DNA from: Escherichia coli | GTDB taxonomy: Bacteria > Pseudomonadota > Gammaproteobacteria > Enterobacterales > Enterobacteriaceae | Length of the DNA: 64,000 nucleotides | Assembly: GCF_044324785.1 (NCBI RefSeq) | Contig: NZ_CP172127.1 | Strand: one strand, 5' to 3' | Part shown: positions 27,119 to 46,350 of the stretch, one piece after another | Position numbering within the stretch: the first letter of the stretch is position 1 | Layout: each line of letters starts with the position of its first letter | Made by a program: the position numbers and the translations under genes | Notes under the pieces: generated by a model | The model's database searches: none | What the model was told of the DNA's origin: nothing | The model's input: the letters and a program-made list of their open reading frames with translations, nothing else

Positions 27119-27194
27119 TGGCTCCTCTGACTGGACTCGAACCAGTGACATACGGATTAACAGTCCGCCGTTCTACCGACTGAACTACAGAGGA
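27119..27194 (-). tRNA. asnV: tRNA-Asn (GUU)
   Basis: Reverse complement is the 76-nt E. coli tRNA-Asn, UCCUCUGUAGUUCAGUCGGUAGAACGGCGGACUGUUAAUCCGUAUGUCACUGGUUCGAGUCCAGUCAGAGGAGCCA. Confidence 0.97.
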
Positions 27195-27520
27195 ATCGTG
27201 TGAACGGGGCGCATATTAATGGCAGTGCATGGTGATGTCAAAGGGTGAAATGCATTTTTTTGTTTGTTTGCTGTCAATTTCAACAAAGTGGTGAGCTTTC
27301 AATCTTATTGGGTAATGAACCATCGTGGTGCATACCCTCCTTTTATAGGGCAGGGGAACGCGACAGCTGATTAAAGGAGCCAATGACGAATCTATCATAA
27401 TCTCTTATTTGACAGTTGGTTAGCTTGTACATCAACGCCAAAATAAAACTGGCAAGCATCTTGCAATCTGGTTGTAAGTAATGGCGGCACTTGGGCCGAT
27501 TCTTAAAAACCGGAGGCAAC

Positions 27521-36880: not shown

Positions 36881-39800
36881 ATGAGCGGAAAACCGGCAGC
36901 ACGTCAGGGCGATGCCACAATGAAAGGTGGCCCGATAGTCCAGGGGTCGGCAGGCGTGAGGATTGGCGCGCCAACCGGCGTGGCCTGTTCAGTGTGCCCC
37001 GGCGGATTCACTTCCGGTAACCCGGTGAATCCGCTGCTCGGTGCAAAAGTACAGCCCGGCGAAACCGATTTCGCGCTGCCCGGCCCGTTACCGTTCGTGC
37101 TCTCCCGCACCTACAGCAGCTACCGGACGAAAACCCCTGCGCCCGTCGGTATCTTCGGTCCTGGCTGGAAAGCACCCTTTGATATCCGCTTACAGATACG
37201 CGATAACGAACTGATACTCAATGATAACGGTGGCAGAAGCATTCATTTTGAGCACCTGTTTCCCGGTGAGGATGGCTTCAGCCGCAGCGAATTATTCTGG
37301 CTGGTGCGCGGCGGCGTGGCGAAACTGAATGAAAGTCACCGTCTTGCCCCACTCTGGCAGGCTCTGCCGGAAGAACTCCGCATGAGTCCGCATATTTATC
37401 TGGCGACGAACAGTCCGCAGGGGCCGTGGTGGATACTCGGCTGGAGTGAGCGGGTACCGGGTGTGGATGAGGTGCTGCCTGCGCCATTGCCGCCGTACCG
37501 GGTGCTGACCGGCCTGGTGGACCGCTTCGGGCGTACCCTGACCTTCCGGCGTGAGGCAGTTGGCGAATTTACCGGGGAAATCACCGGCGTGACCGATGGC
37601 GCAGGCCGTCAGTTCCGCCTGGTGCTGACCACGCAGGCGCAGCGGGCGGAAGAGGCCCAGCAGCAGGCGGTTGCAGCCGGAGCAAAACGACCAGATATCC
37701 CGGTTTCATTGCCGGACTATACAGAATATGGCCGGGATAACGGCATCCGCCTGTCAGCGGTGTGGCTGGCGCATGACCCGGAATACCCGGAGAATTTACC
37801 TGCCGCGCCACTGGTGCGCTACGACTGGACGCCACGCGGTGAACTGGCGGCGGTGTATGACCGCAGCGGTACGCAGATGCGCCACTTTACTTACGATGAT
37901 AAATACCGGGGCCGGATGGTGGCGCACCGTTACGCAGGCAGGCCGGAGATGCGTTACCGCTACGACGACATCGGGCGCGTGACGGAACAACGTAATCCGG
38001 CGGGTTTAAGCTACACCTATCAGTATGAGAAAAACCGCATCATCATCACCGACAGCCTGAACCGGTGCGAGGTGCTGCATACAGAAGGCGAAGCCGGGCT
38101 GAAACGGGTGGTGAAAAAAGAGCACGCTGACGACAGCGTCACACAGAGTCAGTTCGATTCCATTGGCCGCCTTCAGTCACAGACGGATGCGGCAGGCCGG
38201 ACGACAGAATACAGTCCGAATGTGGTGACGGGTCTCGTCACACGCATCACCACGCCGGACGGCAGGAAATCGGAATTTTACTATAACAACCAGAACCAGT
38301 TAACCTCAGCATCCGGGCCTGACGGACTGGAAATGCGCAGGAAATATGATGAGTACGGGCGTCTGACGCAGGAAACCGCTCGCAACGGCGATATCACCCG
38401 CTACAGTTATGATAATCCGCACAGTGAATTACCCTCTGCAACTGAAGATGCGACGGGTAGCCGCAAGCAGATGACGTGGAGCCGTTACGGGCAGTTACTG
38501 ACTTTCACCGACTGCTCAGGCTACCAGACCCGTTATGAATACGACCGCTTTGGTCAGATGACGGCGGTCCACCGTGAGGAAGGTGTCAGTCTTTACCGCA
38601 GCTATGACAGCCGTGGTCAGTTAATCTCGGTGAAAGATACGCAGGGCCGTGAAACGCAGTATGAGTACAACGGTGCAGGCGACCTGACCGCCATTATCAC
38701 GCCAGACGACAACAGAAGCGAGACACAGTACGATGCGTGGGGAAAGGCCGTCAGTACCACGCAGGGCGGGCTGACGCGCAGCATGGAATACGACGTTGCC
38801 GGACGTGTCATCAGCCTGACCAACGAGAACGGCTGTCACAGCGACTTCAGTTACGATGTGCTCGACCGCCTGATACAGCAGAGCGGCTTTGACGGGCGGA
38901 CGCAACGTTACCGTTACGACCTGACCGGGAAACTCACGCAGAACGAGGATGAGGGGCTTGTCACCCTCTGGCACTACGACGAATCGGACCGTATCACACA
39001 CCGCACGGTGAACGGCGAACCGGCAGAGCAGTGGCGGTATAACGACCACGGCTGGCTGAAAGAAATCAGCCACCTGAGCGAAGGTCACCGGGTGGCGGTG
39101 CATTACGGCTATAACCGTAAGGGACGTCTCACCGGCGAGCGCCAGACGGTGCATAACCCGGAGACGGGGGAACTGCTCTGGCTGCATGAGACAAAACACG
39201 CCTACAACGAACAGGGTCTGGCAAACCGCGTCACGCCGGACTGCCTGCCTGCTGTGGAGTGGCTGACCTACGGCAGCGGTTACCTGGCGGGGATGAAGCT
39301 GGGCGACACGCCGCTGCTGGAGTACGCGCGCGACCGCCTGCACAGAGAAACGGTGCGCAGCTTTGGCAGCATGGCAGGCAGTAATGCCGCATACGAACTG
39401 ACCAGCACATACACCCCTGCAGGCCAGTTACAGAGCCAGCACCTGAACAGCCTGGTGTATGACCGTGACTACGGGTGGAATGACAACGGCGACCTGGTGC
39501 GCATCAGCGGCCCGCGACAGACGCGGGAATATGGCTACAGCGCCACGGGCAGGCTGGAGAGTGTGCGCACCCTCGCACCGGACCTGGACATCCGCATCCC
39601 GTATGCCACCGACCCGGCGGGCAACCGGCTGCCGGACCCGGAGCTGCACCCGGACAGTACACTCACGGCGTGGCCGGATAACCGCATCGCCGAAGACGCG
39701 CATTACCTGTACCGTTACGATGAATACGGCAGGCTGACGGAGAAGACGGACCGCATCCCGGCGGGTGTGATACGGACGGACGACGAGCGGACCCACCACT

Positions 39801-41062
39801 ACCACTACGACAGCCAGCACCGTCTGGTGTTCTACACGCGGATACAGCATGGCGAGCCACTGGTCGAGAGCCGCTACCTCTACGACCCGCTGGGACGGCG
39901 AATGGCGAAAAGGGTATGGCGGCGGGAGCGTGACCTGACGGGGTGGATGTCGCTGTCGCGTAAACCGGAGGAGACATGGTACGGGTGGGACGGCGACAGG
40001 CTGACGACGGTGCAGACTGACACCACGCGTATCCAGACGGTGTACCAGCCGGGAAGCTTCACGCCGCTCATCAGAATCGAAACAGACGTGACCGAACTGG
40101 AGAAAGCGCAGCGGCGAAGCCTGGCGGAGAAGTTACAGCAGGAAGGGAGTAAAGATGGTCACGGCGTGGTGTTCCCGCCTGAACTGGTGCGGCTGCTGGA
40201 CAGGCTGGAGGGGGAAATCCGGGCAGACCGTGTGAGTGACGAAAGCCGGGCGTGGCTTGCGCAGTGCGGGCTGACGGTGGAGCGGCTGGCGGCACAGATC
40301 GAGCCAGTTTATTTGCCTGAGCGAAAAATACATCTTTATCACTGCGACCACCGGGGACTGCCGCTGGCGCTTATCAGTACTGAAGGTGCAACGGAATGGC
40401 GTGGGGAGTATGACGAGTGGGGGAATCAGCTTAATGAGGAGAACCCGCATCATCTGTTCCAGCCATACCGCCTGCCGGGGCAGCAGTACGATGATGAATC
40501 GGGGCTGTGCTATAATCGTTATCGTTACTACGAGCCGTTACAAGGGAGGTATATTACACAGGACCCGATTGGGTTAAATGGGGGGTGGAATTTATATAAA
40601 TATCCGCTGAATCCAATAAATTATGCAGATCCTCTTGGCTTAGCCGTAGATATAAACCACTTCCCAGTCAACGAAGACATACGAAATTATGCAGAGAAAG
40701 TTTGGAATAATCCTAATATCATTACAATTGGAACACATGGTGATCCTCAATCAGTATATGATGAAAATTATAATAAGATAGATGTCAAGACATTAGCTAA
40801 TGAGGTTCGAAATCATCCTAAATTTAAACCTGGAATGTCAGTAAGACTGTTATCCTGTAATACAGGAAAAGGAAATAACTCTTTTGCACAGCAATTGGCA
40901 GATGAACTAGGTGTGAGAGTCTATGCTCCTGACCAATATGACTGGTACTATTCAAATGGTAAGGTAGAGCCTTGGGGAGGATTCTATGATGCAAACAATC
41001 AATTGCAAATGGACACGAATCAGCCTGGACATGAGTTTACATTCAAGCGAAGGAAACCATAG
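36881..41062 (+). CDS. Rhs-family polymorphic toxin: N-terminal PAAR-like domain, YD-repeat core, variable C-terminal toxin domain
   Basis: 1393 aa; N-terminus [38 protein letters not shown] (PAAR-like); many YD repeats (..RYRYDDIGR.., ..YEYDRFGQ..); core ends in the PxxxxDPxGL motif ([14 protein letters not shown]); SD AAGGAT upstream. Confidence 0.95.
40643..41059 (+). other. Variable C-terminal toxin domain of the Rhs protein (139 aa, low GC)
   Basis: Sequence after [144 protein letters not shown]. Clear drop in GC relative to the core. Confidence 0.8.
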
Positions 41063-41064
41063 GT

Positions 41065-41667
41065 ATGAGGTATTTTCTCTTTATATTTATAACAATCCCC
41101 CTTATCTCTGGAGGTCATATGAGTAATGATAGCGAAAAGATAATATCAACATATTCGCTCAATTTTTTATCACCAGATGATGTGAGGAAAGAAGAACTTA
41201 AGGCATCACAAGGTGATAGTGATGCTGCATTTAAATTGTACAAATATTACCTTTTTTGCGAGCCAAAATCATACAGAAAACAGCACGAATGGTTAATAAT
41301 ATCGGCAAATAATGGAAATGCTATAGCTCAATATAACTTATCAAGAGAACTTGAGTCAGAAGGAAAAGTAGATGAATCAATACAATGGCTGAAAAAATCA
41401 GCGGAACATGGTAATAATTATGCACAATATCAGATGTCAAAATATTTATTAAAAATAGGTGATATTAGAGGATCGGAATATTATCTAAACTTATCTGCGG
41501 ATAACGGATGTGTATTTGCAATAAAAGATATTATCAAAAATATGATGGATAGTGGAAGGTACGATGACGCCCTCATTTGGGTTGAAAAATTGAAAAAATT
41601 GTATCCTGACACAAATACCGAACTTTACATACAAAAAATAACGCAGAAAAAAAAGCAATCCAAATAA
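41065..41667 (+). CDS. Putative cognate Rhs immunity protein with Sel1-like repeats
   Basis: Starts 2 nt after the rhs stop; AT-rich; Sel1/TPR-like repeats (..GNAIAQYNLSRELESEGKV..SIQWLKKSAEHGNNYAQYQMSKYLL..). An alternative start ATG at 41119 has a strong GGAGG SD. Confidence 0.7.
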   Translation: MRYFLFIFITIPLISGGHMSNDSEKIISTYSLNFLSPDDVRKEELKASQGDSDAAFKLYKYYLFCEPKSYRKQHEWLIISANNGNAIAQYNLSRELESEGKVDESIQWLKKSAEHGNNYAQYQMSKYLLKIGDIRGSEYYLNLSADNGCVFAIKDIIKNMMDSGRYDDALIWVEKLKKLYPDTNTELYIQKITQKKKQSK

Positions 41668-41955
41668 TAATTATATATAATTACTCGCACAGAGTTACAG
41701 TATTGCAAGAAATATATCTAGCATATAAAGTCGCCGCCAGTAAAGATAAAGTACTGTGTAATCCTTCCTCCCATATAGGGGTAAAAACTTAGCATCCAGT
41801 GCCCTCGACTTAATTTTTAGTATTTTCTCTGTGAAGTGACACTTCGTAGGATTCAGTTCATGTTTACCAGAAAAAAGGTGGTCATTCTGGTGGTCTTGAC
41901 AATCTCGATTTTTTGTTTTAGCTTTCCAATCAGCCAATTAATGGCTACGGCGATC

Positions 41956-41975
41956 CCAGTCAGAGGAGCCAAATT
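41956..41975 (+). repeat. Island right-end direct repeat (attR): copy of the tRNA-Asn 3' end
   Basis: ccagtcagaggagccaaatt is identical to the 3' end of asnW plus 4 nt of flank (31412..31431). Confidence 0.8.
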
Positions 41976-42032
41976 TTAGTTTTGAGACATCTCTATGAGT
42001 CTCAAGACAGTTAAAAAATAAAAATTATTTTT

Positions 42033-42067
42033 ACCCGGTTACCTTGTAAAAAGTGACCGGGTTTTTT
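42033..42067 (+). terminator. Rho-independent terminator (probable ancestral asnW terminator, displaced by the island)
   Basis: Hairpin acccggttaccttgtaaaaagtgaccgggt followed by a run of 6 T, just after the attR repeat. Confidence 0.6.
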
Positions 42068-42419
42068 GATTTCTGTGTTTCGTGCGCTTAATCGAGTCTC
42101 ACGCTTCGGTGAGCAAATTGCCCCCCAACAGACATCACGATTCGCAAGGTCAAAAAATTCGTTCCGTGAAGTACCATACAAAGGTATAGAGAAAAATGCC
42201 TTATGCGGGATGTTGCTGTCGCGTTTTTATCGGGAAACTAAACGTAATTGCCACTTTGTCTTCTGTAATCAGAAAAAGAAAACCTGGAATTTTAATAAAT
42301 ATTATTTCTCTGGGGCCGGTATTTTTATAATCAATATGATGGGTTGAATATTATATTTTTTATAGGAATATATGAGATTAAAGAAATCTGCCATAAAGAC
42401 AGATTCCTTTAAAATATAA

Positions 42420-43136
42420 TTAGAGATTTGCGACGTTATGATAAACTTTTTGAACATCGTCGTCATCTTCAAGGGCATCAACAAGCCCTTCAAAGATTTC
42501 TAAATCTTCTGGGGAAAGCTCAACTTCAGATTGAGCAATCATTTCTAATTCTGTTGTTGAGAACTCAGTGATTCCAGCTGCTTTTAGAGCCGCGATTCCT
42601 TTATGAAGGTCAGTAGGTTCGGTATAAATAACAATGTTACCTTCTTCTTCAGTCACATCACGAACATCAACTTCAGCTTCAAGTAAAATTTCAAAAATAT
42701 GGTCAGGGTCTGTTCCTTTAAATACAATCACACCCGTATTGTCAAACATATAGCTGACAGAACCTGCCGCTCCGATATTGCCGCCTTTTTTATTGAAAAT
42801 TGTGCGAACGTTAGCAATCGTACGGTTAACATTGGAAGTCAAGGTCTCAGCGATAATCATTGAGCCATTAGGACCAAAGCCTTCATAACGGCCCTGCACG
42901 AACGTTTCATCTCCGCCGCCTTTGGCTTTATCAATTGCTTTATCAATAACATGCTTTGGAACTTGTGCCTGCTTTGCTCGTTCAATAACGAATTTTAAAG
43001 ATGTGTTTAATTCTGGATCGGGTTCACCTTGTTTGGCAGCGGCATAGATTTCTACACCGAATTTTGCATAAATTTTAGACGTCGCACCGTCTTTAGCCGT
43101 TTTTTTAGCAACAATATTGGCCCATTTACGTCCCAC
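42420..43136 (-). CDS. yeeN: YebC/PmpR-family probable transcriptional regulator YeeN
   Basis: 238 aa, [37 protein letters not shown].. YeeN. Confidence 0.93.
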
Positions 43137-43477: not shown

Positions 43478-44932
43478 TTACCGGAACGGCGGCTCATTAA
43501 ATGTTCGTAATTTACGTGAATGCAGTCGGTCGCCTTCTGCGCGCAGCAAATCGATCGCCCGAATGCCAATTTGCAGGTGTTCGGAAATAGCGCCTTCATA
43601 AAAACGGTTAGCCTGACCGGGAAGTTTAATCTCACCATGCAACGGTTTATCTGAAACACACAATAGTGTCCCGTATGGCACGCGGAAACGATATCCTTGC
43701 GCGGCAATGGTTGCACTTTCCATATCAATTGCTACGGCCCGGCTTAAGTTAAAACGAAGTGCAGAAGCTGAGTAACGTAATTCCCAGTTCCTGTCATCTG
43801 TGGTTACCACAGTGCCAGTACGTAGCCGCTGTTTAACTTCCTCACCGGGCCTGCCGCTGACTAACTTGGTAGCGTCATAAAGCGCACGTTGCACTTCAGC
43901 AATGCTCGGAATAGGAATATCGGGCGGCAGTACCGCATCAAGAACGTGGTCATCGCGTAAATAAGCGTGTGCAAGTACATAATCTCCAATGGCCTGGCTT
44001 TCACGTAAGCCACCACAGTGACCAATCATCAACCAGACATCCGGGCGTAGCACCGCCAGATGATCGCAGATGGTTTTTGCATTTGACGGTCCCACGCCAA
44101 TATTCACCAGAGTAATACCCTGACCATCGGCGGTAATTAAATGCCATGCTGGCATCTGGTGTTTTTTCCATGCAAGGTCGGAAATGGCTTCTTCTGGCGC
44201 TTTGGTTTCGGCGGTGATCCAGTTCCCGCCAGCACAAGAAAGGGCAATGTAGGGACTATCAGGGTCGAGGATCTGGCTGCATCCCCAACGAACGAATTCA
44301 TCCACATAACGTGTGTAGTTGGTAAACAAGACGAACGGCTGAAAATGTTCAACTGGCGTACCGGTGTAATGGCGCAACCGCGCGAGGGAAAAATCGACGC
44401 GGCGCGCATCAAAATGCGATAGCGGGGAGAATTCCGTTGGATGATAAATGCCGTCTGCAGTTTCATCGCCAATTTGCGCCAGTTCTGTTGTCGGGAAGTA
44501 GCGAGTTAACCCAGCGCTCATTGAGCGATCAAGGGTCAATTCAGAGCCATCGATGACATAAGGATAAGGGATTTCATGCTGCGAGGGTTGCACCGAGATA
44601 TGCGCACCATAATCCTGATACAACAACGTAAGTTGTTCATTGAGATACGAACGAAAGAGAGTAGGGCGAGTAATCGTGGTGGTGTAGCTGCCTGCGTGGG
44701 TAAAGCGACCAAATGCGCGCGTTTTGGGGGGATTGGTTGTGCTACCGTCCCAGGTTACGGTCAGTGATGGATAGACAAAAAGACCTTGTTTGCGGGCGTT
44801 TTCATCAGGTAATTCGCCACTTGTAATATAGTTGCCAATGGCGTTGCGTAAAGCGACTACAGATTGCTCATACAACGCGTCGAGTTTATCCAGTGCCTGA
44901 GCTGGGGTCAGACCGGAGCCCTTATTATTCAT
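43478..44932 (-). CDS. amn: AMP nucleosidase
   Basis: MNNKGSGLTPAQALDKLDALYEQSVVALRNAIGNY.. Amn (484 aa); internal ATG of ORF 43478..45088, preceded by AGGAG. Confidence 0.93.
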   Translation of the reverse strand: MNNKGSGLTPAQALDKLDALYEQSVVALRNAIGNYITSGELPDENARKQGLFVYPSLTVTWDGSTTNPPKTRAFGRFTHAGSYTTTITRPTLFRSYLNEQLTLLYQDYGAHISVQPSQHEIPYPYVIDGSELTLDRSMSAGLTRYFPTTELAQIGDETADGIYHPTEFSPLSHFDARRVDFSLARLRHYTGTPVEHFQPFVLFTNYTRYVDEFVRWGCSQILDPDSPYIALSCAGGNWITAETKAPEEAISDLAWKKHQMPAWHLITADGQGITLVNIGVGPSNAKTICDHLAVLRPDVWLMIGHCGGLRESQAIGDYVLAHAYLRDDHVLDAVLPPDIPIPSIAEVQRALYDATKLVSGRPGEEVKQRLRTGTVVTTDDRNWELRYSASALRFNLSRAVAIDMESATIAAQGYRFRVPYGTLLCVSDKPLHGEIKLPGQANRFYEGAISEHLQIGIRAIDLLRAEGDRLHSRKLRTFNEPPFR

Positions 44933-45033
44933 GTGTGTCTCCTGTTCCATACAATTACCGCACATCCGATAGTATGTCACAGAAATGTGAAACAAAAGTG
45001 TAAGACGAAGATCGGATGATCTTCGCCAGGCTA

Positions 45034-46350
45034 TCAAGCGCGTTGATTGTCTTTCATCAACAAAGCGGTCATTGCGGAAATCAGGCATCCAGCCAGCAAA
45101 TAAATAGCGACGCTATGCCAGTTCCCGGCAAAGTAAGTGATGAGTGCAGCGGCAATAAAAGGTGTAAATCCACCGCCAACCACACTGGCAACCTGATAAC
45201 CGACTCCAGCACCACTGTAGCGATAACTGGCACCAAACATTTCGGTAAACATCGGTTGTTGCACACACACCACCATGTCATGCGCAATGTTTGCCAGCAT
45301 TATGGAGAAGAAAACTATCCAGAAAATAGATTGTGCTTCAAGCGCCATAAAGAAAGGAAATGCGCTCAACGTTCCGATCAACGCGCCTGTGATATAAACC
45401 CTGCGGCGACCAAAACGATCGGCAAGCCAGGCAAAACAGGGAATTGTCAGGCAGCTTAATCCACCGACCAGCAAACCAATATTAAGGAAAAGTTCGCGCG
45501 GTAACCCCATATTCTGGGTTGAATAATTAAGTGCGAAGGCGGTAACGATGTACATCGTCAGCAACTCGCACAGTCGTAGCGCAATAATCTTCAGGAAAGC
45601 ACCGGGATGTCGTAATAGTGCTTCGATAACCGGGATGCGTTTTTTCGCGGCCGCTTGATTATGTTGCTGTTGTTCAAATTCCGCGGACTCCTCCATGCCA
45701 TTGCGCACCCACAATGCTCCCAGTACCAGTACGATGCTAAACAGGAAAGGAATGCGCCAGCCCCAGCTTAAAAACTGTTCGTCAGTCGTCATCATACTGA
45801 TCAATGAAACCAGTCCAGTTGAAAGCAGTAAACCTACACCGTAGCCAACTTGTACACCGCTACTGTAAAAGGCTTTTTTATTTTTCGGAGCACTTTCAAC
45901 AGAAAGCAACGCTGCGCCTCCCCATTCGCCGCCGACGGCAAATCCCTGTATGGCACGCAGCGTCACCAGTAAAATGGGGGCCCACCACCCAATGGTCGAG
46001 AAGGAAGGAAGAATACCAATCAAGGCTGTCGCGATACCCATCATCCAGACGGTCAGCATTAACATGCGCTTACGTCCCAGTCGGTCGCCAAAGTGACCGA
46101 AAATGACACCGCCGAGTGGTCGGAAAAGGAAGCCGACACCAAAGGTGGCAAATGCGGCGAGCGTTCCCATCGCCGGGCTTACTTGCGGGAAAAACTCGCG
46201 ATTAAACACCAGTGCGGCGGTAATGCCATAGAGTAAAAAATCATACCAGTCGACGACGGCACCAGCGAAACTGCCGAACGCAGCTCGTCGGGCGCGACTT
46301 AACGAAAGCGTCCCTTCATCGGGACGAGTGGAGATGAGCGTGGAGTCCAT
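45034..46350 (-). CDS. shiA: Shikimate transporter (MFS)
   Basis: 438 aa, MDSTLISTRPDEGTLSLSRARRAAFGSFAGAVVDWYDFLLYG.. ShiA. Confidence 0.93.
   Translation of the reverse strand: MDSTLISTRPDEGTLSLSRARRAAFGSFAGAVVDWYDFLLYGITAALVFNREFFPQVSPAMGTLAAFATFGVGFLFRPLGGVIFGHFGDRLGRKRMLMLTVWMMGIATALIGILPSFSTIGWWAPILLVTLRAIQGFAVGGEWGGAALLSVESAPKNKKAFYSSGVQVGYGVGLLLSTGLVSLISMMTTDEQFLSWGWRIPFLFSIVLVLGALWVRNGMEESAEFEQQQHNQAAAKKRIPVIEALLRHPGAFLKIIALRLCELLTMYIVTAFALNYSTQNMGLPRELFLNIGLLVGGLSCLTIPCFAWLADRFGRRRVYITGALIGTLSAFPFFMALEAQSIFWIVFFSIMLANIAHDMVVCVQQPMFTEMFGASYRYSGAGVGYQVASVVGGGFTPFIAAALITYFAGNWHSVAIYLLAGCLISAMTALLMKDNQRA

Follow-up and report, generated by a model that had tools for sequence, protein, structure and literature searches.

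What does an Rhs protein do with a C-terminal tip that matches no domain family by sequence, and where in a neighbouring cell would such a tip act? The question is raised by a 64,000-nucleotide stretch of the Escherichia coli chromosome (contig NZ_CP172127.1, hereafter the window), which encodes a 1393-residue Rhs protein ending in a 139-residue tip and, directly behind it, a Sel1-like repeat protein. Taken as a whole, we regard it as probable that the Rhs protein is a polymorphic toxin with a clan CD peptidase tip, delivered by a type VI secretion system (T6SS), blocked by the Sel1-repeat protein and active in the periplasm or envelope of the recipient. The features on which the argument turns are the following.

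36881-41062, + strand: rhs gene, 1393 residues, from the open reading frame list and its translation; 'RHS element core protein' WP_116836501.1 in RefSeq for strain N3 (100% identical DNA)
36881-40642, + strand: Rhs core, residues 1-1254, with a short PAAR-like N-terminus, a DUF6531 plug, YD/RHS repeats and the Rhs-associated core, from NCBIfam and Pfam
40628-40642, + strand: DPLGL motif, the core/tip boundary and presumed Rhs self-cleavage site, read from the DNA and coinciding with the end of the RHS_core model
40643-41059, + strand: toxin tip, 139 residues (1255-1393), predicted minimal clan CD (C80/DUF4347-like) cysteine peptidase domain
40736-40741, + strand: His32-Gly33 (His1286-Gly1287 of the full protein), predicted general base of the dyad, from conservation and position after strand 26-30
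40856-40858, + strand: Cys72 (Cys1326), predicted catalytic nucleophile, from conservation and position after strand 66-70
41065-41667, + strand: immunity gene for a 200-residue Sel1-like repeat protein, with homologues behind related tips; called in RefSeq as 41119-41667, 182 residues, WP_001578539.1
41065-41118, + strand: predicted N-terminal signal peptide or anchor MRYFLFIFITIPLISGGH, absent from the RefSeq version; based on the ATG 2 bases after the rhs stop, hydropathy and the N-termini of homologues

The boundary, the dyad and the predicted fold

The NCBIfam equivalog RHS_core (NF041261) matched residues 1-1254 with 2592 bits over its full length (model positions 1-1261 of 1261), and Rhs_assc_core matched residues 1177-1254. 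Pfam placed DUF6531 at residues 46-123 and several RHS_repeat matches in the N-terminal 500 residues. With the N-terminus included, the core shares 80% identity with K-12 RhsA and 69% with ECs_0237 of O157. In 200-base windows, G+C content falls from 0.60-0.65 (40000-40400) to 0.33-0.34 (40600-40900), and it stays low, at ~0.30-0.35, through the gene downstream of rhs. The protein thus has the hallmarks of an Rhs polymorphic toxin, a core conserved up to PxxxxDPxGL and then a variable tip of different base composition. An initial annotation of this DNA had put a DPxGL boundary at 40628-40642, where D-P-L-G-L is indeed encoded and where RHS_core ends at the same leucine, and it had described the sharp fall in G+C behind the boundary, which we measure as ~0.60 to 0.33. 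Its start and length for the tip (40643, 139 residues) also stand; its end coordinate of 41062 includes the stop codon at 41060-41062 and has been moved to 41059.

That annotation did not recognize the tip domain, and sequence comparison of the tip alone gave it no name either. Pfam returned no usable match (only LRR_10, E 0.068), NCBIfam returned none, the best PDB hit was an unrelated protein at E 0.26, and a seven-sequence tip profile matched nothing in the PDB. What had been noticed was a His-Gly motif and, about 40 residues later, a Cys motif. Both are there: His32 is encoded at 40736-40738 and Cys72, the only cysteine of the tip, at 40856-40858, a spacing of 40 residues. A first alignment with homologues of 40-47% identity already had the His-Gly, SCNTG, FAQQLA and V-x-A-P motifs and one tryptophan conserved. 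We then counted conservation over 203 domain segments from the best 150 hits of a profile search, comprising 109 segments of a C-terminal class and 94 of an internal class. The histidine is present in 108/109 and the cysteine in 109/109 C-terminal tips, and in 86 and 85, respectively, of the 94 internal copies. His32, Gly33, Cys72 and Gly75 are almost invariant across these segments, and because of this near-invariance the His and Cys motifs are more than a chance resemblance. Their arrangement is that of a clan CD dyad, with His before Cys, each directly after a hydrophobic β-strand, and Gly after His.

An AlphaFold2 model of the tip, built on a seven-sequence alignment, had a predicted local distance difference test score (pLDDT) of 86 and a predicted template-modelling score (pTM) of 0.81, with strand 26-30 lying just before His32 and strand 66-70 just before Cys72. 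The initial annotation had likened the His/Cys arrangement to caspases, metacaspases and the MARTX cysteine protease domain (CPD), and had proposed a structure search as a check. Run with our model, that search returned clan CD peptidases only; the MARTX and TcdA CPDs were best, and caspases and metacaspase-4 were among the matches.

8.5: V. cholerae RTX CPD
7.7: TcdA CPD
7.7: gingipain K
7.5: P. aeruginosa T6SS effector Tce1 (DUF4347)
7.5: SAVED-CHAT
within 5.0-6.6: TcdB, Craspase CHAT, asparaginyl endopeptidase/legumain, gingipain R, caspase-9
within 5.0-6.6: glycosylphosphatidylinositol (GPI) transamidase, separase, metacaspase-4, caspase-3

Foldseek agreed, with the RTX CPD at E 7.9e-4 and probability 1.00. 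No nuclease or deaminase fold, named by the annotation among the outcomes that would refute its proposal, was seen among the structural matches. We rejected a nuclease or deaminase fold for this reason, and a papain-like or transglutaminase Cys-His fold likewise, since none was among the matches. The caspase-like guess is thus supported by the modelling, in which the tip is predicted to be a clan CD (caspase-fold) α/β/α sandwich. AFDB50 contains independently built AlphaFold models of this E. coli tip, which superpose at TMq 0.89-0.93, and relatives with 27-45% identity that have been named automatically as 'Peptidase C80 family protein' or 'DUF4347 domain-containing protein'.

Sequence profiles recovered traces of the same relationship. 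When 41 diverse family members were compared with Pfam at E<=0.1, seven matched DUF4347, three Peptidase_C80 (PF11713, best E 1.5e-3), two CHAT and one Peptidase_C13; the window tip itself gave no match to PF11713 at E<=10. A profile of the 41 sequences gave marginal matches only in the PDB, of which the top one, EtpA, was discarded as a repeat artefact. The family profile aligned weakly (E ~1) to the asparaginyl endopeptidase AEP1, with 'ggHGsp' on SNHGGP and 'LlsCntG' on LEACESG, stretches that we take to be the C13 catalytic motifs. A basic pocket for inositol hexakisphosphate (InsP6), as in C80, was not supported, by the indirect measure of sequence: no column reached 60% Lys/Arg conservation among the 203 domains, and the tip has an isoelectric point of 6.1, with 15 Lys and Arg against 17 Asp and Glu.

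A predicted polymorphic toxin family and its Sel1-repeat partner

A search for the distribution of the tip, another of the checks proposed at the outset, uncovered a large family rather than an orphan. Searched exhaustively with a profile, 1.84 billion protein cluster representatives yielded 3534 proteins at E<=0.001 and 1490 at E<=1e-10; a word-indexed search had found only nine, so that the family is visible by exhaustive profile search alone. Its members come from Proteobacteria, Bacteroidales, proteins of actinobacterial appearance and one Streptococcus relative. Among the best 150 hits the domain has two settings. It either closes a protein or a short orphan cassette (109 segments), or recurs as two to seven internal copies within giant proteins of 2000-6800 residues (94 segments).

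Members with the domain at the C-terminus are diverse in what they carry ahead of it. In at least 48 of 114 the domain starts directly after DPxG[LWIVM], typically with (G)VD[IL]NLF. One carrier (P0077) has an Rhs core and a HINT/intein module in front of the domain, another (P0152) filamentous-haemagglutinin repeats and a third (P0042) a XopAI-like ADP-ribosyltransferase. The closest homologue (P0003, 47% identity) is an orphan cassette that shares its array with DUF4329 and Imm26 genes, and a Delftia genome (L010) holds a family cassette in a similar array of Rhs fragments. To judge by these architectures, a terminal domain that moves between carriers and orphan cassettes is behaving as is typical of polymorphic toxin domains.

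Internal copies present a different picture. P0010 (3184 residues) and P0011-P0016 belong to a group of 3000-6800 residues, actinobacterial in appearance, with five to seven domain copies, which in P0010 lie alongside five SCO1664-family (TIGR03843) modules. This suggests MARTX-like polyproteins whose own clan CD domains cut out several effectors, and self-releasing peptidase activity is the more likely role of internal copies, as far as architecture can tell. For the window tip we considered a purely self-releasing role and rejected it, as there is nothing behind it to release and the Rhs core already contains a cleavage site. A further, non-Rhs subfamily of 163-residue proteins (P0007-P0009; L007/L008 1234-2068) has AHGG instead of GxHG and is followed by a gene for a 117-residue zinc-ribbon protein without a signal peptide, not by a Sel1 gene. 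With such a neighbour, immunity would be achieved in another way, and the target may be cytoplasmic.

Behind the window tip, the next open reading frame starts 2 bases after the rhs stop. A Sel1-like homologue of its product lies directly downstream of the tip in 10 of the 12 Rhs-type loci that we examined; besides the window, these are a marine contig (L003), Delftia (L010), L013, L014, L016, L019, L020, O157 Sakai and K-12. The proteins share the motif A-x-G-D-x-x-A-x-F-R-L-Y-x-Y-Y ... W-L-x-x-S-A-x-x-G, and the window protein is 34% identical to that of L016 (E 5e-15). Taken alone, it had only weak matches to Sel1 and TPR in Pfam; the family profile matched Sel1-repeat structures in the PDB at E 8e-41 (4bwr), 4e-38 (6ok3) and on down to 2e-14. 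AlphaFold2 modelled the immunity protein as a solenoid of ten paired helices (12-15 residues each) over residues 37-199, mostly with pLDDT >90 (from residue 41). Together, these comparisons of sequence and gene order are strong evidence that the downstream gene encodes a conserved Sel1-repeat immunity protein cognate to the tip. Because toxin and immunity protein are conserved together across distant hosts, we infer that the pair is aimed at other bacteria.

Gene callers disagree on the start of this gene, giving versions of 182, 200 and 224 residues. On hydropathy and on comparison with homologues, the start is most likely 41065, 54 bases upstream of the RefSeq start, which would add a signal peptide: the best 12-residue Kyte-Doolittle mean is 2.57 from the 41065 start versus 0.82 from that of RefSeq. 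In Delftia and L003, too, the immunity gene begins at or overlaps the toxin stop. The N-termini of the homologues with predicted export include the following.

Delftia L010: MMRYIFILFMLVTMTNIANS
K-12 YibG: MKACLLLFFYFSFICQLHGA, a clear signal peptide
L003: MNKWFVTVFMLILLFVLG
L019: MKLFFLIILVTTMTGFNA
L020: hydrophobic leader
L014: lipoprotein box LAGC

Over the best 12 residues, mean hydropathy is 2.3-3.3 for the leader-bearing homologues versus -0.2 to 0.8 for ECs_0238, L013 and L016. Overall, export by signal peptide or lipobox is predicted for 7 of the 10 Sel1 immunity homologues. Behind a Bacteroidales homologue, the next gene encodes a lipoprotein that is not Sel1-like.

Paralogues in E. 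coli, delivery and the surrounding island

The initial annotation thought a caspase-like protease on an Rhs scaffold unusual; it is less so than was supposed: Rhs tips of a 'Tox-Caspase' class were predicted in 2012, and the window tip has paralogues of 38-40% identity in K-12 yibJ and in an O157 island. Scores are against the family profile, and counts are over 5426 complete E. coli genomes.

window tip: the query (100%), 88/5426 genomes
O157 ECs_0237 (z0268) tip: 129 bits, E 1.7e-41, 38% identity, 370/5426 genomes
K-12 yibJ pseudogene tip: 79.8 bits, 40% identity, 3428/5426 genomes

In K-12, yibJ (L018 6186-7639, in the MG1655 RhsA element) is an orphan tip with an in-frame stop after ...GKGQNSFAS. 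The Sel1-like gene that follows a yibJ-type tip is yibG, and yibV, an Imm57 gene, lies nearby. Some O157 strains have the yibJ-type tip not as an orphan but within a gene annotated as an RHS element core protein. In O157 Sakai (L017 27080-31908), ECs_0237 is followed by ECs_0238 (z0269, annotated yibG), which is Sel1-like with a low-complexity (GE)n N-terminus. Both pairs resemble that of the window in having the same tip family and the same Rhs core, and YibG and ECs_0238 are of the same Sel1 family as the window immunity protein (28-29% identity, E 1e-13 to 2e-19). The three tips are nevertheless distinct sequence variants, each presumably with its own cognate immunity, and ECs_0238 lacks the signal peptide that YibG and the window protein have. 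In an in-silico study of 2020, the RhsA tip of EDL933 was modelled on 3HO6 and that of z0268 on 3fzy; its authors noted a Sel1-like 'RhsAI' and read the 3HO6 match as the GTPase-inactivating activity of TcdA (PMC7216683). In our list of structural matches, unlike in that interpretation, 3HO6 is the protease domain of TcdA.

Evidence on delivery comes from these and other relatives. ECs_0237 stands directly after hcp and vgrG in a T6SS island, and the L013 operon runs VgrG-DUF2169-PAAR-like-Rhs-tip. By homology, we infer T6SS delivery for the window Rhs protein as well.

The rhs gene and its immunity gene lie within a small island beside a tRNA-Asn gene and frameshifted integrase genes, with yeeN, amn and shiA downstream. 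Over 40300-41700 the DNA is 100% identical to that of strain N3 and many other isolates. The query stretch was matched by 2849 genomes, mostly at 80-90% identity and without coverage of the tip and immunity gene, which occur together in the 88 only.

27121-27196, - strand: tRNA-Asn
29529-29604, - strand: tRNA-Asn
31353-31428, + strand: tRNA-Asn
31590-32851: frameshifted tyrosine integrase, after the tRNA-Asn at 31353-31428
34215-34796: second integrase fragment
34851-34978, - strand: EFASI RNA (Rfam, 100.8 bits, above the gathering score)
36413-36501, - strand: C4 antisense RNA (Rfam, 62.2 bits, above the gathering score)

The pair is cargo of a decayed island inserted at tRNA-Asn. The C4 antisense and EFASI RNA matches fall between the degraded integrase genes and rhs, which suggests the remnant of a P4-like or phage-like mobile element. 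A promoter and terminator scan of 36300-42500 gave nothing above shuffled expectation. Further downstream, amn (43478-45088, - strand) is given as frameshifted in the annotation of the identical strain N3, whereas the window has one 536-codon open reading frame there.

Site of action, rival readings and what the pair would mean

The following course of events would account for the pair. The Rhs core would enclose the tip and probably release it through self-cleavage after DPLGL, and the Rhs protein would probably be delivered by a T6SS into neighbouring bacteria. There, the His1286/Cys1326 dyad would cleave one or more target proteins or peptides of the recipient, while the Sel1-repeat protein, whose reading frame opens 2 bases downstream, would protect the producer and kin with the same gene. 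As to compartment, we lean towards the periplasm or cell envelope for the window variant, because predictions place 7 of the 10 Sel1 immunity proteins outside the cytoplasm. A single cysteine in the tip, the lack of room for a separate entry domain and the lack of conserved basic residues fit such a site.

Several observations weigh against this account. Three immunity homologues (ECs_0238, L013 and L016) have no signal peptide, the zinc-ribbon neighbour of the non-Rhs subfamily looks cytoplasmic, and the RefSeq start at 41119 sits behind a strong GGAGG, which would yield a cytoplasmic protein. The Pfam PAAR_motif is matched weakly and partially (E 0.26, residues 3-26), and no vgrG or other T6SS gene lies beside rhs in the annotated part that we inspected (to ~57 kb). 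TM-scores to solved CPDs are modest (0.42-0.43), the tip has the null results in Pfam and NCBIfam given above, and literature searches with the tip peptide, yibJ, yibG and 'Tox-Caspase' returned no functional study. The compartment may differ between variants.

A rival version of events keeps the toxin and its immunity but has the tip act in the cytoplasm, with the 182-residue leaderless RefSeq form as the true immunity protein. In its favour are the RefSeq start behind GGAGG, the absence of a hydrophobic N-terminus from the immunity homologues of the O157 paralogue, L013 and L016, and the precedent of well-studied Rhs tips, the majority of which are nucleases or ADP-ribosyltransferases acting in the cytoplasm. 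Yet the ATG at 41065 lies only 2 bases after the rhs stop and its 18 extra residues resemble homologue N-termini, most of the Sel1 homologues are predicted to be exported, and the tip offers no additional domain by which it could cross the inner membrane; we therefore consider cytoplasmic action unlikely, if worth keeping in mind. A tip with the clan CD fold could instead carry out another reaction, for example transpeptidation or ligation, or act on a non-protein peptide such as the peptidoglycan stem. The structural matches include GPI transamidase and the asparaginyl ligase OaAEP1, export of most immunity homologues would suit an envelope substrate, and Imm57, which has been listed with both Tox-LD-peptidase and Tox-Caspase (PMC3482391), is represented by yibV in the same Rhs element as yibJ. 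The best matches are nonetheless hydrolytic endopeptidases (CPDs and gingipain), nothing in the tip sequence singles out a ligase, and the Imm57 link may just reflect neighbouring genes in a multi-immunity locus, so that we find this quite improbable.

Least credible of all, to the point of being very improbable, is an effector directed at eukaryotic cells and not at bacteria, like Tce2, Shigella OspB and the MARTX and Tcd CPDs. Its appeal is that the closest solved relatives are all from host-directed toxins or effectors. Against it, a dedicated immunity gene co-conserved in many lineages and arrays of orphan cassettes are hallmarks of interbacterial toxins, and the basic InsP6 pocket is unlikely on the Lys/Arg conservation and isoelectric point given above. 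C80 domains are ~200-250 residues long, internal to the toxin, self-cutting and activated by host InsP6. The window tip differs from the C80 CPDs of RtxA and TcdA/TcdB in having 139 residues, in being terminal and paired with immunity, and in lacking conserved basic residues or a PF11713 match. Tce1 and Tce2 of the P. aeruginosa H3-T6SS are putative C80-like proteases carried as Hcp3 cargo and, in a further contrast with the window pair, have no immunity gene (PMC13323088). Tce2 is toxic to yeast in a Cys115-dependent manner, and neither was markedly toxic in E. coli in that 2026 study (PMC13323088), whereas PA0256 (Tce1) was toxic in E. coli in a 2021 study (PMC8262886). Both are DUF4347 (PF14252) proteins and free-standing Hcp cargo; the window domain is fused to an Rhs cage and has a conserved immunity protein.

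We return to the interbacterial peptidase toxin, for which the nearest precedent is a prediction. Zhang, de Souza, Anantharaman, Iyer and Aravind described in 2012 a 'Tox-Caspase' domain with a caspase-like fold and conserved His and Cys, which ends polymorphic toxins whose contexts include RHS repeats and T6SS and which also serves as a releasing peptidase in the interior of proteins (PMC3482391). The window family shows the same two architectures and fits that description, by which alone the two were compared, as the class has no public Pfam or NCBIfam model. The immunity proteins listed for 'Tox-Caspase' are Imm36 and Imm57, in contrast to Sel1 in the window family; the link of Imm57 with Tox-Caspase in γ-proteobacteria is consistent with the K-12 RhsA element, in which yibV is Imm57. 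In the literature that we searched, the term occurs only in Zhang et al. The window tip is thus a further sequence variant of a computationally predicted class, not a new kind of toxin.

Characterized toxins offer looser parallels. Cpe1 and StbD-CT, the only interbacterial cysteine protease toxins that we found characterized, have clan CA folds. They resemble what we propose for the window tip in being contact-dependent and antibacterial, with a Cys/His active site and cognate immunity, and differ from it in having a fold other than clan CD. Cpe1, a papain-like toxin, cuts the topoisomerase proteins GyrB and ParE in the cytoplasm (PMC12136450), as does, according to the literature, StbD-CT, a C39 peptidase toxin. 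Literature searches found no characterized clan CD toxin with a bacterial target. For the immunity side, PA5087 and PA5088 of P. aeruginosa are periplasmic. Both have Sel1 repeats and inhibit a T6SS effector by binding it, as cited in PMC7216683; the effectors that they neutralize are phospholipases D, whereas the window Sel1 protein is paired with a predicted peptidase.

We propose, tentatively, that this may become the first characterized clan CD interbacterial toxin, acting in the periplasm on an envelope protein or a peptidoglycan-linked peptide, inhibited by a secreted Sel1 protein and needing no InsP6-like activator. The export predicted for most of the Sel1 immunity proteins would point to an envelope substrate, and cleavage of such a substrate would be a new mode of killing and might reveal a new point of weakness in the Gram-negative envelope. 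In its Sel1 protein, the pair would also provide a naturally occurring protein that inhibits a clan CD protease. If the reading is true, no other Rhs toxin/immunity pair of the species would be as common as yibJ/yibG, which ~63% of complete E. coli genomes have, and two K-12 genes of so far unassigned function would gain a role. The interest of the locus thus lies in the bacterial substrate of a caspase-fold toxin, in its likely periplasmic site of action, and in a widespread E. coli gene pair that the same family would explain.

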